A stretch of DNA of 64,000 nucleotides, from positions 6,444-70,443 of the forward strand of contig CAMCUO010000009.1 of assembly GCA_945879015.1 (NCBI GenBank), written 5' to 3'. How positions within the stretch are numbered: position 1 is the stretch's first letter; each line of letters opens with the position of its first letter. Source of the stretch: Chitinophaga pinensis (GTDB lineage Bacteria > Bacteroidota > Bacteroidia > 2-12-FULL-35-15). The translations under genes and the position numbers were made by a program. Of this stretch, positions 1,918 to 56,974 are shown in pieces. The notes under the pieces were generated by a model. That model worked only from the letters and a program-made list of their open reading frames with translations. It was not told the DNA's origin and searched no databases.

Positions 1918-1920
1918 AAT

Positions 1921-2077
1921 TTTCACCACTAAGACACTGAGGTCACTTAGAAAATTTTTAGAGACTTAAGGAAATAAGTAAAAACAAAAACACCCAAATA
2001 AATAATTTGGGTGTTTTTGTTGTAAATAAAACTTAGTGTTCTTAGTGCCTTAGTGGTGAAAAAACTTAGTGGTGAAA
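1921..2077. repeat. 13-bp inverted repeat (TTTCACCACTAAG / CTTAGTGGTGAAA) plus four direct CTTAGTG words flanking the convergent terminator
   Basis: TTTCACCACTAAG lies at 1921-1933. Its exact reverse complement CTTAGTGGTGAAA occurs at 2049-2061 and 2065-2077. CTTAGTG also starts at 2032 and 2041. Confidence 0.8.
1991..2019. terminator. Bidirectional rho-independent terminator between sod (+) and pfkB-family kinase (-)
   Basis: Perfect 9-bp stem CACCCAAAT (1991-1999) / ATTTGGGTG (2005-2013), with an A-run upstream and a T-run downstream. Confidence 0.8.
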
Positions 2078-2078
2078 A

Positions 2079-3002: not shown

Positions 3003-3108
3003 GTTATCGATTATTATTAAAATTTCGCGCAAATATATTGCATATTTGCTTTGAACGTGCTAATATTGCACTCCTTTTTCGAAAGGGTTATTAACCAAGA
3101 CAAAAAAT

Positions 3109-3190
3109 TCCCTTTTATCCGCCCAGGCGGATGGTTAGAGTCCCGCAAGTGCGGGATTAATAAGAGGGTCCCTGGGAAAGTCCAGTAAGA
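3109..3190 (+). pseudogene. Decayed tRNA-Asn-like copy 1 (non-functional)
   Basis: Aligns by eye to the real tRNA-Asn at 3292. TCCCTTTTA matches the acceptor 5' half, TGGTTAGAG the D loop, and TTAATAAGAGGGTCCCTGGGAAAGTCCAG the anticodon 3' half, variable region and T arm. The 5' anticodon stem is replaced by the hairpin TCCCGCAAGTGCGGGA (3141-3156). An extra hairpin CCGCCCAGGCGG sits in the D arm. The 3' acceptor strand is not complementary. Confidence 0.6.
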
Positions 3191-3224
3191 ATTGAAAAGA
3201 TTGAAGTAAAAACCAGGTTATAAA

Positions 3225-3275
3225 TTCTCCAGTTCAGCTGGTTGAGTCCCGCATATGCGGGATTAATCAGAAGAA
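3225..3275 (+). pseudogene. Decayed tRNA-Asn-like copy 2 (fragment)
   Basis: AGTTCAGCTGGTTGAG (D-arm-like), then the hairpin TCCCGCATATGCGGGA (3247-3262), then TTAATCAGAAG (anticodon loop/stem 3' half). It has no T arm or acceptor 3' strand. Confidence 0.55.
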
Positions 3276-3291
3276 GACTGTAAAGATAAAT

Positions 3292-3365
3292 TCCCTCTTA
3301 GCTCAGCTGGTTAGAGCATCTGACTGTTAATCAGAGGGTCGCTGGTTCAAGTCCAGCAGAGGGAG
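3292..3365 (+). tRNA. tRNA-Asn (anticodon GTT)
   Basis: Manual cloverleaf: acceptor TCCCTCT/AGAGGGA, D arm GCTC-AGCTGGTTA-GAGC, anticodon arm TCTGA-CTGTTAA-TCAGA (GTT), variable GGGTC, T arm GCTGG-TTCAAGT-CCAGC, discriminator G. CCA is not encoded. Confidence 0.93.
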
Positions 3366-3370
3366 CAAAA

Positions 3371-3396
3371 GCCTCACAGAAATGTGGGGCTTTTTC
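3371..3396 (+). terminator. Rho-independent terminator after tRNA-Asn
   Basis: Stem GCCTCACA / TGTGGGGC (one G.U pair), loop GAAA, followed by TTTTTC. Confidence 0.7.
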
Positions 3397-3778
3397 TTTT
3401 TTAGGTTAAACACATTATCCCTTAAAAGGCACTTTTACCCCTGTAACTTACCAATAACTTACCAATAATTTATTCCTGTTTTAGCCATAAATAACATAAT
3501 ATGGCAACATTAAAACTTACAATTGATGGCTCACGCGCTTACTAGGGAATTCGCTTGCCTTTTTTAGCCCAATTCAAGAGTGCAGAAAGATCGCATTTTA
3601 GCTGCCTCAGACCGAGTTTAATACCCCTCAGGAGTTGGGGCTCAAAGTTTTGTTTCAATTCATTTAATTGATTTTCTAACCCCTTAGTTGCCACCCAGAT
3701 AGTGTCTTTTTTATCTTCGCAAATGATTTTACCTGAATTTACGCCAATCCCTAAAAGCCATCTTCGTAAGTATACTTT

Positions 3779-11897: not shown

Positions 11898-13175
11898 TTA
11901 ATTAATGCGCGTTTTAAGTTTATACAAACGATAAGAGATCACGATGGAAAACACAAAGAAAAGTCCGAGTTTTAAAACCTGGTATTGGATTGCATACCAG
12001 TCGCCACCCTTAATAAATAACTCGTAATAACCCGTGAGTGCCCAGTTAAGCGGAGACAAGGAGCTGATGGTTTGCATAACAGGAGGCATAATATTTACGG
12101 GCACCCAGATACCTCCGAGCGCAGACATGATCAGAATACTAATGCCGCCAAAGACAGCAGATTGCTGTGGTGTGTTGAATAATGTTCCGATCAATAAGCC
12201 ATAACTAACTGCAGCCAAAGATAGCATCATTGTGAGTGCGGTCAATGCGAGCCAGTGCGTTCCAATATCTAAGACAGATAGGCCCAACAGTGGCATCACA
12301 TATTTCCCGAGTAAGATGATCACTACAAATTGAACAATTGCAACTAAAAAATAAACAAAAAGTTTACCTGATAATATTGATAGATAATTACCTGGAAATG
12401 TTCTCAACCTGATAAACATTCCTTCCGAGCGTTCATAAATGATACTGCCGCCCAAAGGCAGAACGATAAAAAATATTGAAAAAATAGCCCAGGCAGGAAT
12501 GTTATGCTGAACAGCACTAGGCTGATATGTTTTTTTAAGATCTCTGACAGCATATGCTTCCTCATAAACAAAAAAATCAGACTCAGGCAGCACCGCTTTT
12601 GAATCTGATTCTAATAGTTGTGCAATTTTTTCACCCATTATCTGAAACAATATCTTTGTTTTTATGGAAGAGATCAACTCTTTTAATCCACTATTTATAC
12701 CCATTACAAACGATTTGTTTGCTGTAGGATCGATGATGATCTCTACTTTTACCTGCTGCGGCTCTTTTATTACTGTGCTTTTCTGATCAAAAAAAACATT
12801 CACCATTTCGGCCACATTTTCCCGCAGTACATTTGTCGAATTTTTCGGTATCACTAATGCTGCAAGAAATTCGCCCTCAACAATTCTCTTTTTGATATCA
12901 TCGGATGATCTGTATTTTGTCCCGTCATCAACTGTTAAATCACAAATTCCGAATTTCTTAAACCCGTTTTCGATTGCTAAGCCAAGACTGTCATTATCAT
13001 TGTTAACGAGCAATACAGGGATTCCGGACTGAGAAAGACTTTTATATGCCTCGTGTTGAATGAGCGTCATAATGAATACTAGCAAAACGGGCATCACAAA
13101 AAGAACTGTGATACCGGTTTTGTCAACGATCAACAATTTGACTTCTTTAATTAAGGTTGAAATTAATCGATGCAT
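11898..13175 (-). CDS. ABC-2 type transporter permease
   Basis: 425 aa. The topology is one N-terminal TM, a large extracytoplasmic loop, then a cluster of about 5 C-terminal TMs, as is typical of ABC-2 exporters. It lies 1 nt downstream of the ATPase gene. Confidence 0.8.
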   Translation of the reverse strand: MHRLISTLIKEVKLLIVDKTGITVLFVMPVLLVFIMTLIQHEAYKSLSQSGIPVLLVNNDNDSLGLAIENGFKKFGICDLTVDDGTKYRSSDDIKKRIVEGEFLAALVIPKNSTNVLRENVAEMVNVFFDQKSTVIKEPQQVKVEIIIDPTANKSFVMGINSGLKELISSIKTKILFQIMGEKIAQLLESDSKAVLPESDFFVYEEAYAVRDLKKTYQPSAVQHNIPAWAIFSIFFIVLPLGGSIIYERSEGMFIRLRTFPGNYLSILSGKLFVYFLVAIVQFVVIILLGKYVMPLLGLSVLDIGTHWLALTALTMMLSLAAVSYGLLIGTLFNTPQQSAVFGGISILIMSALGGIWVPVNIMPPVMQTISSLSPLNWALTGYYELFIKGGDWYAIQYQVLKLGLFFVFSIVISYRLYKLKTRIN

Positions 13176-22039: not shown

Positions 22040-22298
22040 TTGCTGTTTCTTTCGATTCAATTTTTGTTTTTATTCTAATTGATTTGTTGATGTATCTACG
22101 ATAAGCAATATAAAAACGTAATGCACCGAACAAAATTAGAACAATTCCTATGATACTTCTTCCTTTTGGCATAAGATCGATCCAAGTGTCGGTGAAAAGG
22201 AACATTATGCCGATGGCAAGATAAAAAGCAAAAAGCAAAAAACTAAGGTAAAACCTTGGTTTGTTCCATGAATATTTTAGTTTGATTCTAAAACTCAT
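22029..22298 (-). CDS. Small two-TM membrane protein (paralog A)
   Basis: 89 aa with two hydrophobic helices (FYLSFLLFAFYLAIGIMFLF and IIGIVLILFGALRFYIAY). It is similar in layout and sequence to the adjacent 67-aa ORF, and its ends overlap both neighbours by 11 nt. Confidence 0.6.
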   Translation of the reverse strand: MSFRIKLKYSWNKPRFYLSFLLFAFYLAIGIMFLFTDTWIDLMPKGRSIIGIVLILFGALRFYIAYRRYINKSIRIKTKIESKETANAE

Positions 22299-30033: not shown

Positions 30034-30043
30034 ATATATTCCT

Positions 30044-30074
30044 ACGAATTACGAATTTTAGCGAATTACGAATA
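30044..30074. repeat. Heptamer word run ACGAATT ACGAATT tta GCGAATT ACGAATA in the nuoM-nuoN spacer
   Basis: Read directly at 30044-30074. Confidence 0.8.
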
Positions 30075-30091
30075 TTTCGCTTATTCTATTT

Positions 30092-33470: not shown

Positions 33471-33488
33471 ACTCTTTATTATTTTAAT

Positions 33489-33532
33489 CCGTCAGATAAA
33501 TCTGACGGCAATGAATTATCGGCAATGAATTA
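33489..33532. repeat. Hairpin CCGTCAGA-TAAA-TCTGACGG followed by the direct 13-mer doublet CGGCAATGAATTA x2
   Basis: Hairpin at 33489-33508. 13-mers at 33506-33518 and 33520-33532; the second overlaps the nuoK stop codon. Confidence 0.8.
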
Positions 33533-33849: not shown

Positions 33850-33884
33850 TAGATATTAGATATTAGATTTGAGATGTTAGATTT
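33850..33884. repeat. Five tandem heptamers TAGATAT TAGATAT TAGATTT GAGATGT TAGATTT
   Basis: Read directly in the nuoJ-nuoK spacer. An AATCTGCACA doublet also lies at about 33945-33970. Confidence 0.85.
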
Positions 33885-35143: not shown

Positions 35144-35704
35144 CAGTTGGCAGTTGGCAATTTTTAAAAGTTGGCAATGTTTTTAGTTAATACTTTACCT
35201 CTTCCTTAATTTTCAACTTTATATTTTTACTAAATTTAGTTAATTCCGTTTTTACAATATTAGCTATTGCTTTCCTGTGTATTTTTCTGGGTTTTCAATC
35301 ATATGCCCAATCATTCTTCCTATTTCTTCAGAACGTTTTAAATAATCATCATACTGCTCTTTCTCAATATATTCACAAGCCAAAGCAAAATCCAACCACA
35401 CCTGAGTCTCGCTATTTTCCATGTCTGCATCTGAACATTTGCTTACAAAATGAGCAGGGTAAAGTCTTTTTCTGTAGCCTTCGCCAACATTCGAACAAAC
35501 AGAACGAGATGATCTTCTAATTTGACTCGTTAGACCAAATTTCTCTTCATTTGGAATTTTTTTGATTCTTTAAAAATTAGCACTGATAAATCAAATGCTT
35601 TTTTATAAACATTCAAATCTCTGAAACTTCCCATATATTAAAAGAACTATTTATTTTTATTTTTTTCCCTTTGCCAACTATTTTCTTTTGCCAACTGCCA
35701 ACTA
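35144..35704 (-). mobile_element. IVS-like cassette 1: frameshifted four-helix-bundle gene bracketed by a bipartite inverted repeat, filling the nuoH-nuoI spacer
   Basis: The outer arms CAGTTGGCAGTTGGCAA (35144-35160) and TTGCCAACTGCCAACTA (35688-35704) give 16 perfect pairs, plus a terminal G.U in the minus sense. The inner arms are AGTTGGCAA (35169-35177) and TTGCCAACT (35671-35679). An 8-nt unpaired spacer lies on each side. Confidence 0.5.
35264..35634 (-). pseudogene. Four-helix-bundle protein (23S rRNA intervening-sequence protein family, PF05635/TIGR02436-like) with one frameshift
   Basis: Own translation. Frame 1 reads MGSFRDLNVYKKAFDLSVLIFKESKK and then stops. The continuation is in another frame: PNEEKFGLTSQIRRSSRSVCSNVGEGYRKRLYPAHFVSKCSDADMENSETQVWLDFALACEYIEKEQYDDYLKRSEEIGRMIGHMIENPEKYTGKQ*. 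Restoring one nucleotide in the A7TT run (forward about 35555-35565) gives an intact ~122-aa family member (..KKFPNEEKFGLTSQIRRS..). Confidence 0.75.
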
Positions 35705-36748: not shown

Positions 36749-36760
36749 AAATTATTTTTT

Positions 36761-36780
36761 CCGTCAGATGAATCAGACGG
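36761..36780. repeat. Degenerate copy of the CCGTCAGA...ACGG hairpin (CCGTCAGATGAATCAGACGG) in the nuoG-nuoH spacer
   Basis: 17/20 identical to 33489-33508, but only a 5-bp stem remains. Confidence 0.6.
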
Positions 36781-36792
36781 CTATGACATTAA

Positions 36793-39672: not shown

Positions 39673-39716
39673 TAATTATAATTTATTTTTAATAATAGTC
39701 ACTCTCTTCCTTAACA

Positions 39717-39762
39717 CCTCATCCGTCCGCCCTTGCGGACACCTTCTCCAAAATGGAGAAGG
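39717..39762. repeat. Double-hairpin REP-like element, copy B (nuoD-nuoE spacer)
   Basis: CCTCATCCGTCCGCCCTTGCGGACACCTTCTCCAAAATGGAGAAGG. It has the same order and orientation as copy A (25872-25919) and begins 27 nt past the nuoD stop codon. Confidence 0.8.
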
Positions 39763-39788
39763 GAAATCGCTCCGTTTGTTTATTTATC

Positions 39789-41006
39789 CTATGCGTCTAA
39801 TTCTCCAGCAATCACATTCATACTACTCATTGTTAAAATTGCATCAGAAAGCATTCCGCCTCTGATCATTTCTGCGTAAGCTTGATAATAAATAAAACAC
39901 GGTCTGCGCATATGCAAACGATAAGGTGTTCTTCCTCCATCACTAATTAAGTAGTAACCTAATTCTCCGTTACCACCTTCTACTGCATGATATACTTCTC
40001 CTTTCGGAATTTCTGTTTCACCCATCACAATTTTAAAGTGATAGATTAATGCTTCCATATTATTGTATACTTCTTCTTTCGGAGGAAGGAAAAATTCAGG
40101 AACATCAGCATGAAAAATTCCAGCAGGTTCTTTTTTTATTTTTGCAATTGCTTGATGAATAATTTTTACACTCTCCCACATTTCTTGTTGACGCACCATA
40201 AAACGATCGTAAGTGTCGCCTTGTGTTCCAACAGGAATAATAAAATCAAAATCTTCGTAAGAGCAATATGGATTCATTACACGAACATCATAATCAACTC
40301 CAGCCGCACGTAAATTCGGACCAGAGAAACTATAATTCAATGCACGCTCTGCAGTTATTGGTCCGCAGTTAATTGTGCGATCCATAAAAATTCTGTTTCT
40401 CATTAAAAGATTTTCGAATTCTTTTAATGCAGAAGGAAAGTCAATTAAAAATTTATCTAATAAGTCCCAAGCTTTCGGGGTAAAATCTCTTTCTAATCCA
40501 CCTATGCGACCAATGTTAGTTGTTAAACGTGCTCCACATAATTCTTCATAGATATCATAAATACGTTCACGCATTTGGAAGATGTATAAGAAGCCGGTCA
40601 TTGCACCTGTATCCACACCAATAACAGAATTACAAATAACGTGATCAGAAATTCTTGCTAATTCCATAATGATAACGCGCATATATTGTACACGTTTGGG
40701 AATTTCAATTCCCAATAATTTTTCTACTGTCATGTGCCAACCCATGTTGTTGATTGGCGATGAACAATAATTTAAACGATCGGTGATTGGAGTGATTTGA
40801 TAGTATGGTCTGCGCTCAGCTAATTTTTCGAATGCACGGTGAATGTATCCGACAGTTGCTTCGGAATCCATAATTATTTCGCCATCCATTTTCAACACGT
40901 TCTGAAAAATACCGTGTGTCGCGGGATGCGTTGGCCCTAAGTTAAGAGTGGAGTATTCTGTCTCTATTAACTCTTGATTTGTATTTGTATTTTTTTCTTT
41001 GCTCAT
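39789..41006 (-). CDS. nuoD: NADH-quinone oxidoreductase subunit D
   Basis: LNLGPTHPATHG hallmark. I prefer the ATG at 41006 (MSKEKNTNTN), because the longer track ORF reads through the repeat arm at 41018-41049. Confidence 0.92.
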   Translation of the reverse strand: MSKEKNTNTNQELIETEYSTLNLGPTHPATHGIFQNVLKMDGEIIMDSEATVGYIHRAFEKLAERRPYYQITPITDRLNYCSSPINNMGWHMTVEKLLGIEIPKRVQYMRVIIMELARISDHVICNSVIGVDTGAMTGFLYIFQMRERIYDIYEELCGARLTTNIGRIGGLERDFTPKAWDLLDKFLIDFPSALKEFENLLMRNRIFMDRTINCGPITAERALNYSFSGPNLRAAGVDYDVRVMNPYCSYEDFDFIIPVGTQGDTYDRFMVRQQEMWESVKIIHQAIAKIKKEPAGIFHADVPEFFLPPKEEVYNNMEALIYHFKIVMGETEIPKGEVYHAVEGGNGELGYYLISDGGRTPYRLHMRRPCFIYYQAYAEMIRGGMLSDAILTMSSMNVIAGELDA

Positions 41007-41017
41007 TAGCCTCTTTA

Positions 41018-41463
41018 AGTCAAAAGTTTTAAAGTCAAAAGTCAAAAAGACTTTATCTTATTTTTTTAAGTTAATAATTATTGTTCCAAGAACTTTTGAA
41101 ATTTCTAATAATTCACTTTTATCGTTTTTCATTAAACTAATATCTAAATCATATCCCTCTTCAATTGTTTCCATCCAAAAATCTGTTTCATTTGCTGAAC
41201 GTAAAGCAATTTCATAATACCTTATCAACTCCCTTTTTGAACTACTCGCTTTTCCTTCTCTAACATTTGCTCCCACCGATGTGCCGCTTCGCAATATTTG
41301 ATCTCTTAAAGAATATTCAACGCCCTGAACTTTTAATTCAAGTACTAACTTAATTATTCTAACCGCAAACTTCTTTGTCCTAACACGAATGTCCTTATCG
41401 TATTCCATAAATCCCTTCAACCATCAAAAGCTTTTTTGACTTTTGACTTTCTCTCTTTTAACT
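41018..41463 (-). mobile_element. IVS-like cassette 2: intact four-helix-bundle gene bracketed by a bipartite inverted repeat, filling the nuoC-nuoD spacer
   Basis: Long arms: AGTCAAAAGTCAAAAA (41033-41048) and TTTTTGACTTTTGACT (41433-41448), 16 perfect pairs. Short arms: AGTCAAAAG (41018-41026) and CTTTTAACT (41455-41463), 8 pairs plus one position that is G.U in the minus (mRNA) sense. A 6-nt unpaired spacer lies on each side. Confidence 0.5.
41058..41420 (-). CDS. Four-helix-bundle protein (23S rRNA intervening-sequence protein family, PF05635/TIGR02436-like)
   Basis: 120 aa. RTKKFAVRIIKLVLEL...LRDQILRSGTSVGANVREGKASSSKRELIRYYEIALRSANETDFWMETI matches the family pattern (KFA..I..L....L..Q.LRS.TSIGAN..E...A.S..DFI.K..IALKEA.ET.YWL), recalled from memory. 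Confidence 0.8.
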   Translation of the reverse strand: MKGFMEYDKDIRVRTKKFAVRIIKLVLELKVQGVEYSLRDQILRSGTSVGANVREGKASSSKRELIRYYEIALRSANETDFWMETIEEGYDLDISLMKNDKSELLEISKVLGTIIINLKK

Positions 41464-41467
41464 TTAT

Positions 41468-41977
41468 TTATCTTCCAAACATTTTATCATCTTTATCTTC
41501 ACGTGTTCCATCTTCCAATGCATATTCTTTTCTCATTGGGAAATATCCCAAATCATCCATATTTAAAATGCGTTTTAAGTTTGGATGTCCTCTAAAAATT
41601 ATTCCGTAAAAATCATACTCCTGTCGTTCCATCCAATTAGCAGCAGAAAACACAGGTGTTAATGAAGGAACATTTACATCGCTAGTGCTGAAAAATATTT
41701 TTATTCTGATTCTTAAATTTTTTGGAAGGTTGTGTAATTGATACATCACAGCAAATTCTTGTCCTGCATTATCAGGATAATGAATTGTTGCCATGGTTGT
41801 TAAATATTGAAAAGCTAGCTCTTCATCTTTGTAAAGAAAATCAGCTACATCACAAATGATATCACGCTTCACAACAAACTCAGGATAATCAACATTCATT
41901 TTAGATGAAATAAATCCATCTCCGAATTGAGCTTTTAATTTGTTTTCTACTAAGGTTAATAATGCTTGTGTTTCCAT
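41468..41977 (-). CDS. nuoC: NADH-quinone oxidoreductase subunit C
   Basis: 169 aa: ERQEYDFYGIIFRGHPNLKRIL. Confidence 0.92.
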   Translation of the reverse strand: METQALLTLVENKLKAQFGDGFISSKMNVDYPEFVVKRDIICDVADFLYKDEELAFQYLTTMATIHYPDNAGQEFAVMYQLHNLPKNLRIRIKIFFSTSDVNVPSLTPVFSAANWMERQEYDFYGIIFRGHPNLKRILNMDDLGYFPMRKEYALEDGTREDKDDKMFGR

Positions 41978-41984
41978 GGTCTCA

Positions 41985-42017
41985 CCCCCAACCCCTCTCC
42001 TTGTTCAAGGAGAGGGG
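41985..42017. repeat. C-rich leader plus 11-bp hairpin (CCCCCAA-CCCCTCTCCTT-GTTC-AAGGAGAGGGG) just upstream of the nuoC start codon
   Basis: Read directly. A related, shorter element is at 42696-42720. Confidence 0.75.
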
Positions 42018-42066
42018 GGAAGAATTCGTTTTAGTTATATGATATATTTTCTATTCTCAATTTTTG

Positions 42067-42087
42067 CTTTTGACTTTTGACTTTTTT
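42067..42087. repeat. Solo extra copy of the cassette-2 right arm (CTTTTGACTTTTGACTTTTTT) in the nuoB-nuoC spacer
   Basis: It contains TTTTGACTTTTGACT, complementary to 41033-41047, in the same orientation as the arm at 41433-41448. Confidence 0.75.
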
Positions 42088-42101
42088 CCCTTTTGATTTA
42101 T

Positions 42102-42662
42102 TTATTCCATTCCGTATTTATTCAACAACGCTTTATATTCAGGAGAATCTCTTCTTCTGATAGATTCTGACTCCACTAATTTTTGAATTTGTAAAATTCC
42201 GTCTAATACTTGTTCAGGGCGAGGAGGACAACCAGGAATGTAAACATCTACTGGAATAACTCTATCAATTCCTTGAAGAACGCTGTATGTATCAAAAATT
42301 CCACCGCTAGAAGCACATGCGCCCATTGATAAAACCCATTTAGGCTCTGCCATTTGTTCGTATACTTGTTTTAGTACCGGAGCCATTTTTTTAGAGATGG
42401 TTCCCATTACCATTAATAAATCTGCTTGACGAGGAGAGAAACTTAAACGTTCAGCTCCGAAACGACCTAAATCGTAAGTAGAAGCCATGGTTGCCATAAA
42501 TTCGATTCCGCAACAAGAAGTAGCAAACGGCAAAGGCCACAATGAATTTGCACGTGCCATACCAACTACCTTATCAATACGTGTAGCAAAAAATCCTGGC
42601 CCTTCAATTCCCGGAGGAGCATCAGCATCTAATTCTATTTTTGATTTTTCTTTTGTACTCAT
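42102..42662 (-). CDS. nuoB: NADH-quinone oxidoreductase subunit B
   Basis: [26 protein letters not shown] prefer the ATG at 42662 (MSTKEK); the track start at 42680 is TTG. Confidence 0.92.
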
Positions 42663-42695
42663 TATGTTTTTCGCTTTCAATGAAGATCTTTTAAT

Positions 42696-42720
42696 CCCCC
42701 CAACCCCCTTTTTAAGGGGG
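42696..42720. repeat. C-rich leader plus 7-bp hairpin (CCCCCCAA-CCCCCTT-TTT-AAGGGGG) upstream of nuoB
   Basis: It shares the CCCCCAACCCC leader with 41985-42017. Confidence 0.7.
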
Positions 42721-42758
42721 AATTTGTTCTAACAATAATTTTATTGCAATTTACACAG

Positions 42759-42793
42759 ATTCGTAATATTCGTTTTAATTCGTTATCCGTAAC
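42759..42793. repeat. ATTCGT-word repeat ATTCGTAATATTCGTTTTAATTCGTTATCCGTAAC, abutting the nuoA stop
   Basis: Near-identical to 1129-1160, apart from one substitution in each of the first and last words and small indels. Confidence 0.8.
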
Positions 42794-43384: not shown

Positions 43385-46300
43385 TTAATACACAATAATT
43401 TTCTTCACTACATCGTGTTTATCATTTGTCAAGATAATGGTATAAACTCCTTTTCCATAATCAACAACGCTGAATGGTTTGTTATAATTACCAGAGAAGT
43501 TTTTCAATTCTTCCTTATAAATCAACTGACCTAAAGCATTCGTTAATTCTAACGTATAGTTCGCAGGAGTATATACATTAAATGTAATGTTAAAATTACC
43601 ATCACTTGGATTAGGATAGATGTTTAAACCATACTGATTACTTGCATCACTAATTCCAACATTTATAATTACTTCTGGAGCAGATTCTGCGGATGCACAA
43701 CCACTTGTTGTTACAATTACGGTATAGGTTCCATTTGATGTAAATGTATAGTTTTGGTTAGTAGCACCAGCAATCAATACTCCATTTAAATACCACTGAT
43801 TTCCTGTTGCAGAACTTGATGTTAACGTTGTTCCTGATACAGAAATTGTTGGTGTTGGAGGAATTGGATTTACAACCATTGTAATTCCTGTACTAGTTGC
43901 GGTAAGCGGACTAGCACAAGTTGCATTAGATGTTAAGATACACGTTACGATATCTCCATTCGCTAATGTTGTGGTTGTATAAGTAGTTCCACCTGTTCCA
44001 ACGTTAGTTCCATTTACTTGCCATTGATAAGTTGGAGTAGTTCCACCATTTGTTGAAGTTGCTGTAAATAAAACTGATGTTCCTGCACATATTGGTCCTG
44101 CAGGACTTGCAACAACACTCACTGACGGAGTAACAGTAGCATTTACTGTCATTGTGATAGCATTTGAAGTTGCTGTAGCTGTACTTGGACAAGCTGCATT
44201 CGATGTCATAATACAAGTTACAATGTTTCCATTTGCCAATGTTGTGCTTGTATAAGTTGTTCCGCCTGTTCCAACATTCAATCCATTCACTTGCCACTGG
44301 TATGTTGGAGTTGTTCCACCATTCGTTGGTGTTGCAGTAAATGTTACAGATGTTCCTGCGCATATTGCTCCTGTTGGACTAGCAACAATAGTTACCGAAG
44401 GAACTACAACTGGATTTACAGTCATTGTAATTGCATTGGATGTTACAGTAGCTGATGGGCTAGGACATGTTGCATTAGATGTTAAAATACACGTTACAAT
44501 TTGTCCGTTTGTTAAAGTACTAGAAACGTATGTCGGACTATTTGTTCCAACGTTACTTCCGTTAACTTGCCATTGATAAACAGGTGTTGTTCCTCCGTTT
44601 GTAATACTAGCAGTAAATGTAACAGATGTTCCTGCACATATTGCTCCTGCAGGACTAGCAACTATACTAATAGTTGGAGTCACTGTTGGAGTCACTGTCA
44701 TTGAAATGGAATTAGATGTTAACGTAACAGGACTTGGACAAACAGCATTAGAACCCAAAATACAAGTTATAATATCGCCATTGTTTAATAAAGCGGATGA
44801 ATATAATGGACTATTGGTTCCAACGTTAGCGCCATTTATTTGCCATTGATATGTTGGTGCTGCACCACCATTGGTTATTGTAGCAGTAAAGTTAACTACT
44901 GTTCCTGAACAAATTGTTCCTGTTGGACTAGCTACAATACTTATTGTTGGTGTAACCGTTGGATTCACCGTCATCGTAATTGCGTTAGATGTTGCAGTTA
45001 TTGGAGCAGCACATGGAGAACTTGAAGTTAATATACACGTTACAATATCGCCATTTGCTAAAGTTGTTGATGTATAAGTTGTTCCGCCTGTTCCAACGTT
45101 TAATCCATTTAATTGCCATTGATAAGTTGGAGTTGTTCCACCTCCACCAGCAGTTGCAGTGAATGTTACAGACGTACCAGAACAAATCGGTCCAGTAGGA
45201 CTTGCAACAATACTATTTGTTGGAACAACGCTACCACTAACAACAACCGCTACTGTTGAAACTGGACTAGTACAGCCCAACACAGTAACTGTTAAGCTAT
45301 AAGTACCAGCCATACCTGCTGTTGCAGATGGACGAGAAGGATCTTCAAGAGCAGAAGTATAAGCCAAGGGACCTGTCCATGCATATGTTGCACCAGCTAC
45401 AGTATTGGATGTCAATAAAATTGTTGAACCAGTACAAACAGGAGAATTACTTCCAACTGTTGGTGCTGCAGGGATTGGATTCACAACAATAGTAACCGTT
45501 CCAGCTAAACTAGTACAACCACCATTTGTAACTGTTAATGAATATGTCCCGCCCATAACTGTTGTAACACTTGTTAATGCTGGAGGATTTCTCACTGCTG
45601 CTGCATAACTATTTGGGCCAGTCCAGCTATAAGTATACCCACCACCTAAGTTAGGAGTAGTTAAAGTAATTGTACCACCTGCACAAATTGCGGCAGGAGT
45701 TGTACTTCCGTTAATACTTGGAACCGGAGTTGCCGGCAATGCGTTCACAACAACTGTTGTTGTTGCAACTGCACTTGTACATCCACCAACTGTAACTGTT
45801 AAACTATATGTTCCTGCCATCGCAAGTGTTGCAGAAGGACGAGTTGGATCTTCTAAAGAAGAAGAAAAGGCTGCAGGTCCTGTCCATGAATAAGTTGCAC
45901 CTGCTATTGTATTTGATGTCAAACTAATTGTTTGTCCAACACAATCAGGAGTACTACTTCCAACTGTCGGTGTTGCTGGTGTAGTGTTTACAGCAACTAC
46001 TGTTGTAGCAACGGCACTTGTACATCCACCAACTGTTACTGTTAAACTATATGTTCCTGACATGGCTGTTGTTGCAGATGCAATGCTTGGATCTTCCAAT
46101 GCTGAAGTATATGCAAGAGGTCCAGTCCAACTATATGTTGCACCTGCTACTGTGTTTGATGTTAATAATATAGTAGAGCCAACACAAACCGGGGAATTGC
46201 TTCCTGCTGTTGGTGTTGCTGCGGCTGTGTTGACAGCTACTGTTGTTGTCGCTATAGCACTTGTACATCCGCCTACAGTAATTGTTAAGCTATATGTTCC

Positions 46301-49300
46301 TGCCATACCAGCTGATGAAGATGCAATACTTGGATCTTCTAATGCTGAAGTATATGCAAGAGGTCCAGTCCAACTATATGTTGCACCTGCTACTGTATTT
46401 GATGTCAATAAAATTGTTGAGCCAACACAAACTGGTGTATTACTTCCTGCTGTTGGTGTTGCTGGAGATGTGTTTACAACTACTGTTGCAGTTGCCATTG
46501 CACTTGTACATCCGCCAACAGTTACTGTTAAACTATATGTTCCTGCCATTGCTGCTGTAGCAGCTGGACGAGTTGGATCTTCTAATGCAGAAGAATATGC
46601 GCTCGGTCCTGTCCATGAATATGTTGCACCAGCAACGGTATTCGATGTTAATAATATTGTTGAACCAGCACAAACAGGAGAATTACTTCCTGCTGTTGGT
46701 GTTCCAGGAACGGCATTCACAGCTACTACCGTAGTTGCAATTGCACTTGTACAACCTCCAACTGTTACTGTTAAACTATATGTTCCAGCCATTGCTGCTG
46801 TTGCGCCTGGACGAGTTGGATCTTCTACTGATGAACCAAAAGCACTCGGCCCTGTCCATGAATAAGTTGCGCCTGCAACAGTATTAGAAGTCAATAAAAT
46901 TGTTGAGCCCATACAAACTGGGGAATTACTTCCTGCTGTTGGTGTTGTTGGAGCTGCATTGATAACAACAGTAGTAGTTGCTTGCGCACTAGCACAACCA
47001 GCAACTGTTAATGTTAAGCTATATGTTCCTGCCATTGCCAATGTAGCTAATGGAATAGATGGATCTTCTAAAGCAGAGGCAAATGCTGCTGGTCCAGTCC
47101 AAGCATAAGTTGCGCCTGCAACTGTATTGGAAGTTAAACTAATCGTATTCCCCTCACAAACAGGAGAATTACTTCCTGCTGTTGGTGTTGCTGGAATAGC
47201 GTTTACAACTACCGCAGTTGTTGCAACTGCACTTGTACACCCACCAACTGTTACAGTCAAACTATATGTTCCAGCCATTGCAACTGTTGCTGCTGGACGA
47301 GTTGGATCTTCTAATGCAGAGCTGAAAGCTGCTGGTCCTGTCCAAGCATACGTTGCCCCGGCAACAGTATTCGAAGTCAATAAAATTGTTGCCCCTGCAC
47401 AAACAGGAGTGTTGCTACCCGCTGTTGGTGTTGCGGGAACTGCATTTACAACAACTGTTGTTGTTGCAACTGGGCTAGTACAACCAGCTACAGTTACGGT
47501 TAAACTATATGTTCCAGCCATTGCTAATGTTGCAGCTGGACGAGTTGGATCTTCCAATGCAGAGGTGAAAGCTGCTGGTCCGGTCCAAGAATATGTTGCA
47601 CCTGCAATTGTATTTGAAGTCAACAAAATTGTACTTCCAACACAAACTGGTGTGTTACTTCCAACTGTTGGAGCAGCCGGAATAGCATTCACTGTCATTG
47701 TAATTGCGTTAGATGTTGCTGGACTTCCAGTAACACCTGGTAAATTAGAAACCATAACACAAGTAACAATGTTTCCGTTTGCCAATGTAGTTGATGTAAA
47801 TGTTGATGCTGTTGCGCCACCTACAGGCGTTCCGTTTATATACCATTGATATGTTGGAGCAGACCCACCATTTGTTGGAGTTGCAGTAAATGTTGCAGAA
47901 GCTCCCACACACGTTGGATTTGTTCCGGTAGTTTGCGCTATCACTACACTTGCAACTGGCGCACTAACGCCTGTAATATTAATATTATCTAAATAAAGCA
48001 TTTGTCCCCAACCAGATTTGTTTTGGAATTTCACCATCACATTTGCTTGTCCGGCATACGGAGTCATGCTTACTGTTTCTGTTCTCCACTGCGCTGCTGT
48101 AGGGACAAACACTGTTGTTGCATTATCAGGAGCAGTAGATAAAAGAGTTGACCCTTTCGCATAAACTCTTGACCACGTTGAACCACAATTTGTAGAAACA
48201 AACACAATTAATGAATCGAAATACGTTGCATTGTATCTACAATAGGCAACATCAAAAGTCATTGTTGCAGAAGAAACTCCAGTAAAATTATATTTTGGAG
48301 TAATCATTTCGTCAAGATATCCCGCTGTTGAAGTTGGTGGAGTTAAATTGTCCATTGCAGCACATTGTGTGCTTGTTCCGAATCCTCCACAGGCAGTTGA
48401 TTGCGTCCAAGCAAAATCAGCATCTGGATTTATCAATTGCCAATTAGGAGGAATAAATGTTGCTTGAAATCCTTCTACCAAAGGCAATGCAATGGGTGAA
48501 GAAACTGTTATATAAGCTGTTTTTGTTTCAGTATCACTTCCGTTTGCATTTGTTGCAACCAATGTAACCGCATAAGTTCCTGCAGTATTGTAACAAATGT
48601 TTGTTGGATTTTGAATTGTTGATGTTCCCGGAGTTCCTCCGGTAAATGTCCAACTCCAAGATGTAGGAGATCCTGCAGAAATATCTGTAAAGTTGATACA
48701 ATCGCCCACGCAAATATTTACTCTGCTTGCTGTAAAATCCGCAACTGGTGGAGATGTTCCTGGTGAAGCTAAATCTGATTGCCAAATGCTGCGACCAAAA
48801 GTGGCAGCTCTCAATTTCAAAGCAGTATAATGAATTTCTAATTCTCTTACCGATACATTTGGCAAACCAGTATTGTATGGAGTCCAAGAACCGGCAGTGT
48901 TATCGCGGTAATAAACCCCAACATCTGTTCCAACATATAATGGATCATTTACCGAACTTCCTTGGTAAACAATACAGTTTGCAGGTAAATTAGGTAATCC
49001 TGTAGTATAATTGCTCCATGTAACACCTGCATCTGCTGAGTACCAAACTTTATTTGCTGCTGAGTAACCTGAAAAAGTTACCCAAACTCTGTTAGCGTTT
49101 AGTGGGTCTATTGCAATGTAAGAAATAGCAGCAGATGCTGTAGGAAGCCCTGCAGTTCTATCTATAAAGGCCGCTCCCGTAGTGCATGCATAAAATTTAT
49201 CGATTTTTGCAGCATAAATATAATTAATGTTTGAAGCCGCATTTGCTATTGCAATTACGTTTCCTGTTCCGCCTGAAATTGTTCCTACTTGTGTCCAACC

Positions 49301-51199
49301 ACCGCCACCGGTAGTGCTTTTATAAACTTGTGCTTTTCCAACAAAAAGTGTTAGCGCATTACTTGGCGCCATACAATATGGTGTAACCCAATCTCCATCA
49401 GCATTAACTCCTGTTCCTCCACTTGCTACAATTTGTGTTGTATAATTTCCGCCTGTTGTTGTTTTTCTAATATCTCCATAATATAATTCCCCATATTGAA
49501 TATTTGCGTTCGACCAATCAATAATAGATTCCATTCCATCGCCACCTAATGGTCGATTCCATGCTGTTCCTCCTACCCATCGAGCTGTTCCGTTATCTTG
49601 CCAACCTGTATTTAAAAGATTTGCATTGGTTGCTGATAATCCTATTCTGTATGCTTGAGAAATTTGTAATCCATTACTTAAGTCGCTCCAAGAAGTTCCA
49701 CTAGTTGTTGTTCTAAACAAACCACCATCGCAACCTGCAAAATAAGTTGTTCCGCTACCTGGTAAATATTCAATCGCGTGAACATCTGCATGCACATAAG
49801 GCGCACCCGAACCAGTCCATTCAGCATTTAATGTCCACCCTGTTCCACCATTTGTAGAACGCCAAATATTAATTCCGCCCACCATTACTTGATCAGCATT
49901 TAAAGGAGAAACAGCAAGTGCTAAATCATACCAGCCTTGTCCACCAGCAGTAGCACCTGTGTTAGAATATCCTAATATATTGGGAGTTGTAGAACGTGCT
50001 GTAAATGTTGCTCCGTTATCTGTTGAACGATATAATCCTTGAAATCCAAAAGCCGTATTTGCCGCTAAAACATATACATAAGCGGAGTTTGCTGCAGTTA
50101 CTGCAACTGATAAACGAGATACAGATGCTGCTGTTGGCAAACCTGTAGATGTTGTTGCGAAGGTTGTTCCAGCATTTGTTGATCTATAGAATAATGTTGT
50201 TGAAGTTGCATAAACAATGGTTGTGTCACCGGGACGATATTCAATGTCTTTCATGTTAGCTGCTGCTGATGCAATTTGCACCCAACTAACACCGCCATTA
50301 CGAGTACGATAAACACCATTGCTTGTTGCTGCAAAAAGTGTATTTGGATTTTGTGGATTAATTAATAATCGACTGATTGTTCTTCCTTGTGTAATTAACC
50401 AACTTAAGCCTGTTGGGTTCCAAGTGGTTCCACCATTTGTTGTTTTTAATACTCCGATTGAATAAGTGTCTTGTGCTTCTCCGTCACCTGTAGCAAGGTA
50501 TTGAATCAATGGACTGGTTGGATGAATTGCCAAATCGGTTGTTCCGATTACTGCTAACTGATCTGTTCCAGTTGTCCAAGTTGTTCCGCTATTAGTTGTT
50601 TTCCAAAGTCCGCCACCTGGAGAACCAACATAAATTGTTGTCGAAACTAATGGGTCGAATCTAACGAAATTACAACGACCTGCACCGCCACCACCAGAAG
50701 GAATTGCAGTTGTAGGACCAATGATTGTCCAGTTTGCCGCCAATGTTGTTGGAGTTGTTGGTCCGCCTGCTCTTGTTCCGCCTGCTGCTCCAGCATAAAA
50801 GTCATTTAAATAATCGTTCCACGCATTTACCATAACCGAACGGTCTCCAGAAGGATATAATCTCGATTCCATTTGATTTTCCCAACGCTTATATGCTTTC
50901 CAGCCTCCTTCCATTTTTCCTTTTTGAAGCGCTTCAGGAACAGTAGTTGGAACAGCAACACCTTTAGCAGGAATCAAAGGTGCTTTTGCCGAAGGCAATT
51001 TTGCTCTTTCTGCTTCCTTGAGTTTTTCAGTCTCTCTAAACTTTGGCTCGGAGTCTTTATAATAATCGTTAAATGCTTTTTGAACGTCATAAAAATTGAT
51101 AGTCGGATCTTGCATTTTATCCACCCATGTTTGGGAAAAAGCTGTGTTTACAATCGATGTAAGTGCAAAGAATGAAGAAAAAAGTAAAAATTTTTTCAT
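43385..51199 (-). CDS. Giant (2604 aa) T9SS-secreted repeat adhesin: signal peptide, Asp-box/BNR beta-propeller region, PKD domain, jelly-roll (MAM/choice-of-anchor-J-like) domain, 6 YQW-type and 10 Cys-pair Ig-like repeats, C-terminal sorting domain
   Basis: Signal MKKFLLFSSFFALTSIVNTAFSQ. There are about 9 Asp-box-like motifs (TTNSGTTW, TTNGGTTW, TRNGGVSW, STDNGATF, STNGGTGW, SADAGVTW...). PKD domain: PVADFTAS...GTYAVTLVATNANGSDTETKTAYITV. The C-terminal Por_Secre_tail-like domain is NIYPNPSDGNFNITF...GVYTIILTNDKHDVVKKIIVY. Confidence 0.88.
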   Translation of the reverse strand: MKKFLLFSSFFALTSIVNTAFSQTWVDKMQDPTINFYDVQKAFNDYYKDSEPKFRETEKLKEAERAKLPSAKAPLIPAKGVAVPTTVPEALQKGKMEGGWKAYKRWENQMESRLYPSGDRSVMVNAWNDYLNDFYAGAAGGTRAGGPTTPTTLAANWTIIGPTTAIPSGGGGAGRCNFVRFDPLVSTTIYVGSPGGGLWKTTNSGTTWTTGTDQLAVIGTTDLAIHPTSPLIQYLATGDGEAQDTYSIGVLKTTNGGTTWNPTGLSWLITQGRTISRLLINPQNPNTLFAATSNGVYRTRNGGVSWVQIASAAANMKDIEYRPGDTTIVYATSTTLFYRSTNAGTTFATTSTGLPTAASVSRLSVAVTAANSAYVYVLAANTAFGFQGLYRSTDNGATFTARSTTPNILGYSNTGATAGGQGWYDLALAVSPLNADQVMVGGINIWRSTNGGTGWTLNAEWTGSGAPYVHADVHAIEYLPGSGTTYFAGCDGGLFRTTTSGTSWSDLSNGLQISQAYRIGLSATNANLLNTGWQDNGTARWVGGTAWNRPLGGDGMESIIDWSNANIQYGELYYGDIRKTTTGGNYTTQIVASGGTGVNADGDWVTPYCMAPSNALTLFVGKAQVYKSTTGGGGWTQVGTISGGTGNVIAIANAASNINYIYAAKIDKFYACTTGAAFIDRTAGLPTASAAISYIAIDPLNANRVWVTFSGYSAANKVWYSADAGVTWSNYTTGLPNLPANCIVYQGSSVNDPLYVGTDVGVYYRDNTAGSWTPYNTGLPNVSVRELEIHYTALKLRAATFGRSIWQSDLASPGTSPPVADFTASRVNICVGDCINFTDISAGSPTSWSWTFTGGTPGTSTIQNPTNICYNTAGTYAVTLVATNANGSDTETKTAYITVSSPIALPLVEGFQATFIPPNWQLINPDADFAWTQSTACGGFGTSTQCAAMDNLTPPTSTAGYLDEMITPKYNFTGVSSATMTFDVAYCRYNATYFDSLIVFVSTNCGSTWSRVYAKGSTLLSTAPDNATTVFVPTAAQWRTETVSMTPYAGQANVMVKFQNKSGWGQMLYLDNINITGVSAPVASVVIAQTTGTNPTCVGASATFTATPTNGGSAPTYQWYINGTPVGGATASTFTSTTLANGNIVTCVMVSNLPGVTGSPATSNAITMTVNAIPAAPTVGSNTPVCVGSTILLTSNTIAGATYSWTGPAAFTSALEDPTRPAATLAMAGTYSLTVTVAGCTSPVATTTVVVNAVPATPTAGSNTPVCAGATILLTSNTVAGATYAWTGPAAFSSALEDPTRPAATVAMAGTYSLTVTVGGCTSAVATTAVVVNAIPATPTAGSNSPVCEGNTISLTSNTVAGATYAWTGPAAFASALEDPSIPLATLAMAGTYSLTLTVAGCASAQATTTVVINAAPTTPTAGSNSPVCMGSTILLTSNTVAGATYSWTGPSAFGSSVEDPTRPGATAAMAGTYSLTVTVGGCTSAIATTVVAVNAVPGTPTAGSNSPVCAGSTILLTSNTVAGATYSWTGPSAYSSALEDPTRPAATAAMAGTYSLTVTVGGCTSAMATATVVVNTSPATPTAGSNTPVCVGSTILLTSNTVAGATYSWTGPLAYTSALEDPSIASSSAGMAGTYSLTITVGGCTSAIATTTVAVNTAAATPTAGSNSPVCVGSTILLTSNTVAGATYSWTGPLAYTSALEDPSIASATTAMSGTYSLTVTVGGCTSAVATTVVAVNTTPATPTVGSSTPDCVGQTISLTSNTIAGATYSWTGPAAFSSSLEDPTRPSATLAMAGTYSLTVTVGGCTSAVATTTVVVNALPATPVPSINGSTTPAAICAGGTITLTTPNLGGGYTYSWTGPNSYAAAVRNPPALTSVTTVMGGTYSLTVTNGGCTSLAGTVTIVVNPIPAAPTVGSNSPVCTGSTILLTSNTVAGATYAWTGPLAYTSALEDPSRPSATAGMAGTYSLTVTVLGCTSPVSTVAVVVSGSVVPTNSIVASPTGPICSGTSVTFTATAGGGGTTPTYQWQLNGLNVGTGGTTYTSTTLANGDIVTCILTSSSPCAAPITATSNAITMTVNPTVTPTISIVASPTGTICSGTVVNFTATITNGGAAPTYQWQINGANVGTNSPLYSSALLNNGDIITCILGSNAVCPSPVTLTSNSISMTVTPTVTPTISIVASPAGAICAGTSVTFTASITNGGTTPVYQWQVNGSNVGTNSPTYVSSTLTNGQIVTCILTSNATCPSPSATVTSNAITMTVNPVVVPSVTIVASPTGAICAGTSVTFTATPTNGGTTPTYQWQVNGLNVGTGGTTYTSTTLANGNIVTCIMTSNAACPSTATATSNAITMTVNATVTPSVSVVASPAGPICAGTSVLFTATSTNGGTTPTYQWQVNGTNVGTGGTTYTTTTLANGDIVTCILTSNATCASPLTATSTGITMVVNPIPPTPTISVSGTTLTSSSATGNQWYLNGVLIAGATNQNYTFTSNGTYTVIVTTSGCASAESAPEVIINVGISDASNQYGLNIYPNPSDGNFNITFNVYTPANYTLELTNALGQLIYKEELKNFSGNYNKPFSVVDYGKGVYTIILTNDKHDVVKKIIVY
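43865..45235 (-). repeat. Five tandem ~91-aa Ig-like repeats (YQWQ.NG type) inside the adhesin gene; a sixth copy lies at about 47680-47950
   Basis: The unit IVASPTG.IC.GTSVTFTAT.TNGGTTPTYQWQVNG.NVGT....Y.S.TL.NG.IVTCI.TSN..C......TSN.ITMTVN repeats back to back. Confidence 0.85.
45235..47680 (-). repeat. Ten tandem 81-aa (243-nt) repeats, consensus ATPTAGSN.PVC.GSTILLTSNTVAGATYSWTGP.A..SALEDP.RP.AT.AMAGTYSLTVTVGGCTSA.ATT.V.VN
   Basis: The period was measured on DNA: TATATGTTCC at 46048 and 46291 are 243 nt apart. Unit 9 is divergent and slightly longer. Units 6 and 7 are nearly identical. Confidence 0.9.
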
Positions 51200-54140: not shown

Positions 54141-54353
54141 TTAGCTTTTAGTGATTTTTTCTAATTCCATTCCGCAAACCGTGCATGTGCCCGGTTTATC
54201 TAATATTTCCTCCGTGCATTTCATTGGACACTGGTATTGTTCTTTTGCTGTTTCAATAGGTCCTTCTTGCTTCTTTTCTGCGCTACCACACGAAACAAAA
54301 GTTGTTGACACCAAAGCAATTACGGTAAAAAGTAAAAAGGCTTGCTTTTTCAT
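54141..54353 (-). CDS. Small lipoprotein consisting of a single heavy-metal-binding domain (HMBD, CxxC...CxxC)
   Basis: 70 aa. Lipobox TFVSCGS. YQCPMKCTEEILDKPGTCTVCGMELEK matches the YxCPMH....PGxCPxCGMxL pattern found at the N-termini of Bacteroidota metal-efflux proteins. Confidence 0.7.
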   Translation of the reverse strand: MKKQAFLLFTVIALVSTTFVSCGSAEKKQEGPIETAKEQYQCPMKCTEEILDKPGTCTVCGMELEKITKS

Positions 54354-56704: not shown

Positions 56705-56974
56705 ATGAACAAAAAAGAACTTCGCAAAGAGCTTGAACTTACTTTGGTAAAAACAATTGAAGAAGTGTTAAGTAAAAAAAACGCTGAGGCCTCCAAAAAA
56801 GGTCGTAAAACAACTTATGAAGCTAGCAAAACAATTGCAAAAAAGTTTTATAAGTCTTTGAAAGAAAAACCTAAAGCAAAACAAAAGCCTGCAGCAGAAA
56901 ACAAATCTAAGAACAAGCCTAAAACAAAGGCTCTTGCTGCACAATCAACAAAGAAAGCAAAAAGCAAAAAATAA
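56705..56974 (+). CDS. Small lysine-rich histone-H1-like protein
   Basis: 89 aa with a C-terminal tail KEKPKAKQKPAAENKSKNKPKTKALAAQSTKKAKSKK. It has no signal peptide and lies 34 nt upstream of ppk1. Confidence 0.6.
   Translation: MNKKELRKELELTLVKTIEEVLSKKNAEASKKGRKTTYEASKTIAKKFYKSLKEKPKAKQKPAAENKSKNKPKTKALAAQSTKKAKSKK

Follow-up and report, generated by a model that had tools for sequence, protein, structure and literature searches.

The spacer between nuoC and nuoD in a 64,000-nucleotide stretch of Chitinophaga pinensis DNA (contig CAMCUO010000009.1; hereafter, the window, numbered from its first letter) probably holds a cassette of the intervening sequence (IVS) type, known from 23S rRNA genes, here residing in an mRNA: a unit of an arm, an open reading frame (ORF), and a second arm, which would be looped out of the transcript and is likely cut by RNase III. 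The ORF belongs to the four-helix-bundle family PF05635/TIGR02436. This reading builds on the observed identity and integrity of the gene, the inverted repeats that bracket it, the generality of that bracket among family members, its 7-nt periodicity, polarity, and conservation, the predicted pairing of the arms, and the patchy distribution of the whole unit. ORF-bearing IVSs and the protein family they encode are already known; the same cassette in mRNA operons and the bracket as a family-wide signature appear to be new, and our literature search turned up neither an account of PF05635 genes bracketed in this way in RNAs other than rRNA nor one of such a signature. To our knowledge, the 23S rRNA IVSs and their ‘S23p’ ORFs have stayed unexplained since the early 1990s.

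The cassette is closed by two pairs of arms. On the plus strand, the inverted pair reads AGTCAAAAGTCAAAAA at 41033–41048 and TTTTTGACTTTTGACT at 41433–41448; the coordinates and sequences that a preliminary description of this DNA had assigned to the arms all hold on re-checking. In the mRNA sense (minus strand, as for all features of the window given below), the 5′ side consists of the outer arm AGUUAAAAG (41455–41463), 6 nt, and the inner arm AAAGUCAAAAGUCAAAAA (41433–41450), a doubled heptamer perfectly complementary over 18 bp to 41031–41048. The 3′ side consists of the inner arm UUUUUGACUUUUGACUUU (41031–41048), which falls within a 37-nt stretch identical in the related locus L001, another 6 nt, and the outer arm CUUUUGACU (41018–41026), a third copy of the heptamer that pairs with the outer 5′ arm in both the minimum free energy (MFE) and the centroid structures. 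The resulting stem is interrupted, ~30 bp long, and built of AGTCAAA-type heptamers; a repeat search returned the whole bracket as a 38-nt inverted repeat with 82% complementarity. As previously described, Watson–Crick pairing fails at a single position, which is U.G when read as mRNA (minus) and C.A on the plus strand. The nuoC stop codon lies 4 nt ahead of the outer 5′ arm, the nearest arm ends 24 nt ahead of the ORF’s ATG (41408), the other arm begins 9 nt downstream of the stop codon of the ORF, and the nuoD ATG follows 11 nt past the outer 3′ arm.

Three measures bear on whether such a bracket could arise by chance. The flank-to-flank alignment score of the cassette is 41, against 16.8 +/- 2.1 (maximum 21) in shuffles (z = 11.8). 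The arms joined by a GAAA loop fold with -33.6 kcal/mol (z = -7.4). Finally, RNAfold pairs the arms as the closing stem in their full context, as had been proposed, in the MFE and centroid structures of both a 471-nt and a 701-nt segment. Because of the shuffle score, the folding z-score, and this pairing, the bracket is not a chance event.

The gene between the arms (41058–41408) is intact and encodes 116 amino acids, from the ATG at 41408 to a TAA at 41060–41058. It had been described as a 120-aa ORF (41058–41420), whose family and position are borne out; its TTG start at 41420 was a mechanical call, and the ATG is the likelier start because the homologues listed are mostly 116 aa long. The protein scores 68.5 bits against PF05635 (cut-off 33.8, E = 7e-19) and 83.6 bits against TIGR02436 (cut-off 24, E = 1e-23). 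An AlphaFold2 (AF2) monomer model (pLDDT 95) predicts helices at residues 7–27, 32–54, 58–85, and 94–115, and its Foldseek matches are BT_0352 (2RLD; TM 0.86–0.92), Xcc0516 (2GSC; TM 0.70–0.79), and, more distantly, the Avd structures 4DWL and 8UBE (TM ~0.74), Avd being an accessory protein of diversity-generating retroelements (DGRs). We know of no characterized relative of PF05635 other than Avd, and the family is very large, with at least 3988 proteins at E <= 1e-30 in one search. The modeled fold is Avd-like, and solved relatives form pentamers, such as that of Xcc0516 cited in PMC4990558. Compared to its L001 orthologue, the window protein has 80% amino acid and 74% nucleotide identity, with pN of 0.13 and pS of 0.74 (dN/dS ~0.05, similar to 0.03 for nuoC). 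The nuoC–nuoD protein is under purifying selection.

The arm bracket is a general signature of PF05635/TIGR02436 genes, not a local oddity. We surveyed 80 nuoD loci from GTDB species genomes and found family genes in eight of them, all in nuo spacers and all co-oriented: between nuoC and nuoD (L001, L010), nuoD and nuoE (L019), nuoF and nuoG (L015, L020), nuoG and nuoH (L037), and nuoH and nuoI (L004, L007). Inverted sets of short tandem units flank 10 of the 10 nuo copies (these eight and two in the window), and the unit differs by lineage (AGTCAAA, AGTTGGC, ATGTAAA, GTTAATN, GGGTATT). A metagenome scan with a subfamily alignment added 80 loci encoding proteins 35–59% identical, and the bracket was then scored around 80 family genes with full flanks, using other genes of <=400 aa in the same loci as controls. 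Flank-to-flank scores of at least 30 were found for 46/80 family genes (58%) versus 20/1184 controls (1.7%); at a threshold of 27, the counts were 52/80 versus 7/225 and 11/231. Similarly, MFE folds contained at least 20 flank-to-flank pairs in 53 of 69 cassettes and in 21 of 103 size-matched controls. No arms were found around 19 unrelated ORFs inserted in relatives’ nuo spacers (ORF6N, GGACT, TonB_C/TPR, PDDEXK_3, DUF5615, and several without a Pfam match), which scored 14–24. The arms are typically ~32 nt long, i.e., ~4.5 heptamers, with a period of 7 or 14 nt in 43/49 cassettes, and they are polar: the 5′ arm is purine-rich in 42/47 cassettes and has G>C in 38/45 (p = 3e-6).

Heptamer-type arms also occur on an IMG/VR viral contig (L172), where a family gene at 2986–3348 is flanked by GGTTTAGGAGTTTATTGGTTTA and its complement (score 30); the family genes on L169 to L171 have no such arms (score 18). 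In L060, a PDDEXK_3 (GxxExxY-type) ORF in the nuoE–nuoF spacer (12015–12434) is flanked by the doubled 9-mer CACTGATTG with a borderline inverted match (score 24), and this second small, scattered gene family may have weak arms.

The cassette is present in some relatives and absent from others. Only two of the 80 nuoD loci (L001, L010) have a four-helix-bundle gene between nuoC and nuoD; the site is empty in L002–L008, L012, and L014, with junctions of 2–11 nt in L003, L005, and L014 and unrelated short spacers in L002, L004, L006, L008, and L012. Along the same lines, the window, L004, and L007 have an insert in the nuoH–nuoI spacer, whereas L002, L006, and L014 have none. The window and L001 share 37/37 nt of the 3′ arm despite saturation at the synonymous sites of the ORF (pS = 0.74), and the 5′ arm of L001 retains the AAAGTCAAAAG unit, expanded to six copies in 38-nt tandem blocks. 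Thus, both the empty sites and the conserved arms suggested as a check in the preliminary description exist in relatives’ nuo operons. In another nuoC–nuoD cassette (L161, 2837–3446), the 5′ arm block is triplicated, the 3′ arm is duplicated, and a nested local hairpin lies just upstream of the ORF; judging from the sequence of L161, the arms appear to grow by tandem duplication.

The unit is also found at another site in a close relative. In L164 (GCA_023251805.1), whose NuoD, NuoF, and NuoG are 96–98% identical to those of the window, a protein 76% identical to the window protein (P0023) is encoded between nuoF and nuoG, a junction of 1 nt in the window. Pairwise alignment of the two loci shows homology that spans the 5′ arm, the ORF, and the 3′ arm to its end and halts at the host genes, with TTTTGACTTTAAAACTTTTGACTTA identical in the two cassettes at the end of the 3′ arm. 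This homologous arm–ORF–arm unit also supports the alternative raised earlier, that the arms are termini of a mobile cassette. All copies seen of the subfamily that are at least 57% identical lie in nuo operons, at C–D, D–E, or F–G. Furthermore, the same loci contain 27 other sites with 11-mers of the arms, against an expectation of 7.6; among them are the arm pairs of L129, L131, and L133, which enclose no ORF, and additional arrays in the rRNA operon of L151. In the window itself, an orphan 5′-type arm, AGTCAAAAGTCAAAA(G), lies at 42068–42082 in the nuoB–nuoC spacer, just after the nuoB stop codon, with no partner and no ORF; its doubled heptamer (AGTCAAAAGTCAAAAG) is identical to the 5′ arm of the nuoC–nuoD cassette. 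Candidate ORF-less ‘empty hairpins’ at nuoC–nuoD of L007 and L004 have arm-like motifs with fold z-scores of about -1 and were not counted.

A second family member in the window is likewise bracketed by inverted repeats, a point that the preliminary description had proposed to check. It occupies the 524-nt nuoH–nuoI spacer and is frameshifted (35264–35634), with 1 nt missing near 35553–35556; the frame-repaired copy matches PF05635 with E = 8e-33, and intact orthologues occupy the same nuoH–nuoI site in L004 and L007. Its arms use AGTTGGC heptamers and are paired in the MFE structure of a segment that contains the two of them: the 5′ arm, AGTTGGCAGTTGGCAA (35688–35703), overlaps the nuoH stop codon and has a third copy 14 nt downstream, and the 3′ arm, TTGCCAACTGCCAACT (35145–35160), lies just upstream of the nuoI ATG (35135). 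The two window copies are very divergent, such that tblastn with the first missed the second, and an iterated hidden Markov model was needed. Against the Avd model NF033474, the second copy scores 35 bits, below the cut-off of 80, and the first has no match. Taken from sequence comparison, the history of the cassettes and the frameshifted second copy look like the life cycle of a selfish insertion.

A similar architecture exists in rRNA. The metagenome locus L151 contains a bacterial large subunit rRNA gene (Rfam, 2333 bits; 1748–5012) interrupted in its helix-45 region by a TIGR02436 four-helix-bundle ORF (3149–3508, E = 1.6e-33). Its 5′ arm reads GACGG-ACAGTTG-ACAGTGG-ATAGTTG-AAAGTGG-ATAGTTG, and the 3′ arm is a complementary CAACTAT/CAACTGT array. 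More ACAGTTG-type arrays lie elsewhere in this rRNA operon and are possibly ORF-less IVSs. In the Coxiella burnetii IVS described by Warrier et al. (2016), three to four tandem GACAGAT heptamers precede the S23p ORF, their number varies among strains, and the RNase III 5′ cleavage site is at the first repeat (PMC4990558). The proposal of an IVS-like cassette in an mRNA operon is supported by the same three-part layout in L151 and in the Coxiella IVS. More generally, the nuo cassette resembles the ORF-bearing 23S rRNA IVSs of Leptospira, Coxiella burnetii (helix 45), Xanthomonas, and Brucella in its protein family, the co-orientation of the ORF with the host transcript, the inverted-repeat stem that closes the insert, the tandem heptamers in the arm upstream of the ORF, a sporadic distribution, and signs of ORF decay. 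It differs in that the host RNA is the spacer of a protein-coding operon with no rRNA helix, and excision by RNase III would apply to it by extension from the rRNA homologues. Moreover, the ORF of the nuo cassette is under clear purifying selection, whereas the Coxiella ORF is reportedly in decay and unlikely to be expressed (PMC4990558).

A further example in an operon comes from a protein of known structure. The gene for BT_0352, crystallized as PDB 2RLD, sits between araD (Aldolase_II) and araA in a Bacteroides arabinose operon (L166, 2435–2932), with (AATTGAC)4 upstream and (GTCAATT)4 downstream, and the predicted stem has 31 uninterrupted pairs. The 5′ side of this locus also holds the local palindrome GACAATTGTC.

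In the model we propose, tandem heptamers make up the purine-rich 5′ arm of the cassette, a PF05635 gene with no promoter of its own follows, and the complementary 3′ arm completes the unit, which would be transcribed within the nuo mRNA. In that RNA, the arms would zip into an interrupted duplex of ~30 bp, closing the gene in a loop of ~380 nt. By analogy with the homologous 23S rRNA cassettes, the duplex would most likely be a substrate of host RNase III, and the insert would be cut out of the host transcript. Excision would let the same element occupy either an rRNA helix or an operon spacer, and the arm–ORF–arm unit would be gained, relocated, degraded, and lost as a whole.

Several points weigh against this mechanism. 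We infer RNase III cleavage and co-transcription from the rRNA precedent and the lack of a terminator, and movement is likewise deduced. Splitting nuoC from nuoD in the nuo mRNA might carry a cost, and no benefit to the host is evident. About one-third of the family genes have no significant arms, some of them being mis-called starts. Co-orientation carries no signal, as both neighbors are co-oriented in 44/60 cases, matching the 75% of the background. We found neither an insertion mechanism nor a target-site duplication or a recombinase: comparing filled with empty sites at nuoC–D, nuoH–I, and nuoF–G revealed no evident duplication, although AT-rich ends could hide short ones, and the neighboring genes examined include no recombinase, reverse transcriptase, or transposase in or beside the cassettes. 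An excess of G.U pairs was considered as a sign of RNA-level selection and rejected: 47 cassettes contain 32 sense G.U and 30 A.C positions, and the earlier argument from G.U versus C.A, drawn at the nuoC–nuoD stem, does not generalize. The true rRNA IVS of L151, whose arms were compared by hand, has no G.U excess either; therefore, wobble says nothing on RNA versus DNA.

Among other explanations, the arms may work chiefly as DNA, forming the terminal inverted repeats or hairpin ends of a mobile cassette that is not autonomous; a recombinase, or replication-linked template switching, encoded elsewhere would move it, and the RNA stem would be a by-product. We regard this as a possible but rather unlikely account of the arms, and it is compatible with an IVS-type cassette. 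It is favored by the patchy presence of the unit, the occupation of different nuo spacers in near-identical hosts, homology that stops exactly at the arm ends, the recurring arm 11-mers with their ORF-less pairs, the orphan arm at 42068–42082, the lack of G.U bias in arm mismatches, and the arm units multiplied in tandem in L001 and L161. However, arm sequences are wholly different between subfamilies, which leaves no terminal motif for a common transposase; the three filled/empty comparisons gave no evident target-site duplication, and no recombinase accompanies the cassettes. The consistent polarity, with its purine-rich 5′ arm, is likewise unexpected for symmetric DNA termini, and the stem is known to act in RNA in the rRNA case (PMC4990558). 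Arm polarity favors a strand-specific role, in RNA or in translation from the two downstream start codons, over purely symmetric DNA termini; unit-like relocation and ORF-less derivatives, in turn, favor DNA-level mobility. The two are compatible.

A different possibility, which we hold to be improbable, is that the heptamer arrays are putative binding sites for the encoded protein, a pentamer by analogy, with each paralogue recognizing its own repeat. Binding would serve autoregulation or packaging of the protein’s own transcript, and orphan arrays of that heptamer at other sites would be further targets of the protein. Consistent with this, a protein subfamily keeps its heptamer type when the insertion site differs; arms of ~4.5 heptamers (~32 nt) can be set beside solved relatives that crystallize as pentamers (Xcc0516, PMC4990558); the fold matches Avd, which together with reverse transcriptase is part of a ribonucleoprotein complex (8UBE); the vicinity holds orphan arrays with the same heptamer; and Bacteroidetes, Cyanobacteria, and Beggiatoaceae have intergenic heptamer arrays with no known partner (PMC4679880; bioRxiv 2022.06.06.494920). 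Yet co-inheritance of arms and gene accounts for their co-variation without binding, the complementary pairing of the sites is left unexplained, and the Coxiella S23p is, as noted, probably not expressed (PMC4990558). As for the notion that chance or low complexity in A-rich and T-rich spacers produced the bracket as an artefact around an ordinary accessory ORF, the 36% GC content of the genome, the A-rich sense strand of its spacers, and their many doubled heptamers could suggest it. The shuffles, the control genes, the armless inserted ORFs in the same spacers, and an arm that is invariant against a saturated synonymous background refute it, and we give it virtually no credence.

The cassette shares features with known systems and is identical to none of those compared. 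Like Avd, its protein has the four-helix-bundle fold (4DWL, 8UBE), and the second copy is a subthreshold match to the Avd model; unlike in DGRs, no reverse transcriptase, template repeat, or variable repeat lies nearby, the neighbors being nuoC and nuoD. Inverted arms, an intergenic location, a patchy distribution, and ORF-less derivatives recall MITEs (miniature inverted-repeat transposable elements) and repetitive extragenic palindromes (REP) with their bacterial interspersed mosaic elements (BIME), but the cassette carries a conserved gene, and its tandem-heptamer arms vary by subfamily. Nor were a shared terminal sequence, a cognate transposase, or an evident target-site duplication found, as would be typical of MITEs or transposons with terminal inverted repeats. 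Integron gene cassettes are also promoterless single-gene units with an imperfect inverted repeat, co-oriented in a transcribed array. However, their attC is single and placed at the 3′ end, whereas here the arms lie on opposite sides of the ORF, there is no integrase or attI, and insertion is into ordinary operon spacers.

Spacers of this genome in general feature tandem 7-nt arrays. The window contains 15 perfect doubled heptamers versus 3.6 expected, ten of them in the intergenic 14% of the sequence. Periods of 5, 8, and 9 show no excess, a period of 6 occurs 28 times versus 13.4 expected with only one case intergenic, and there is one 11-nt repeat. Examples of spacer sites with doubled heptamers are 22223–22241, 30043–30057, 33850–33868, 54325–54339, and 56954–56970. 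Intergenic heptamer arrays of Beggiatoaceae, Cyanobacteria, and Bacteroidetes have been published and are unexplained; they are nearly all direct, with 169 direct and one indirect among 170 sets (PMC4679880), and the binding partner of the Nostoc arrays is still sought (bioRxiv 2022.06.06.494920). Two published units occur in our arms, TAACTGA in L015 and TTCAAAA in L164 and L020. The arms resemble the TAACTGA arrays of these three groups and the short tandemly repeated repetitive (STRR) and TTTTGAA/TTCAAAA arrays of Nostoc in their 7-nt period, confinement to spacers, proximity to start codons, and phyla. In contrast to the published arrays, which are tied to no gene family, two inverted sets here bracket one gene family. 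The orphan array at 42068–42082, with no inverted partner, fits the direct-repeat type.

It is conceivable, albeit with a low probability, that a single system comprises both the PF05635 cassettes and the intergenic heptamer arrays that are unexplained in Bacteroidota, Cyanobacteria, and Beggiatoaceae. We speculate that the Avd-like protein, taken as a pentamer from its relatives, might be the missing factor that recognizes its own heptamer array. Full cassettes would then be autonomous; orphan arrays would not, nor would hairpins lacking an ORF and short IVSs of rRNA. Such a system would spread through transcribed regions, possibly via an RNA intermediate, as in DGR retrohoming.

Our results raise the possibility of a general stem-bracketed cassette for which the rRNA IVS is one niche and which colonizes operons as well, among them nuo in the window and, in B. 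thetaiotaomicron, ara. This cassette suggests a recognizable nucleic acid partner for the PF05635 family and a link between this family and the unexplained intergenic heptamer arrays, and the question becomes testable in a genetically tractable organism. Inserts of this kind also matter to annotation and to the biology of operons; they may break up polycistronic mRNAs, and they mark highly dynamic spacers.

The host operon is complete. The window is a Bacteroidota sequence of 36% GC that carries nuoA to nuoN on the minus strand, and its closest public relatives are uncultured Bacteroidia metagenome-assembled genomes with a NuoD identity of 94–97%. Upstream of the cassette, nuoC (41468–41977) matches PF00329 (Complex1_30kDa, E = 2.7e-35); downstream, nuoD (39789–41006) matches PF00346 (Complex1_49kDa, E = 1.4e-106). 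An Rfam search of the window found no rRNA, and no known RNA family at the nuoC–nuoD locus. Scans of 40900–42200 for sigma-70 promoters and intrinsic terminators gave no promoter excess and no terminator, Bacteroidota promoters lying outside the models of the scan.

The nuo operons of this clade (L001–L008, L037–L070) hold many other co-oriented inserted ORFs, none with inverted arms, among them several of 130–555 aa without a Pfam match. Spacers of at least 300 nt are found at nuoF–nuoG in 15/63 loci and at nuoD–nuoE in 8/76. In the window, ACGAAT-type repeats follow nuoA (nuoA–nuoB, 42681–42793), and complementary ATTCGTA repeats follow nuoM (nuoM–nuoN, 30034–30091); this inverted pair, 12.7 kb apart and enclosing nuoB to nuoM, may be a coincidence or two half-elements. 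Directly upstream of nuoA lies a repeat-rich ORF of 2604 aa (43385–51199) with many near-identical domains of ~80 aa each. Finally, short GC-rich hairpins, e.g., CCCCTCTCCTTGAACAAGGAGAGGGG and CCGTCAGATTTATCTGACGG, occur in the nuo spacers at 42681–42793, 41978–42101, 39673–39788, 36749–36792, and 33471–33529, and similar CCCCTCTCC...GGAGAGGGG hairpins of REP-type appearance flank nuoE or nuoJ in L002, L007, and L012.

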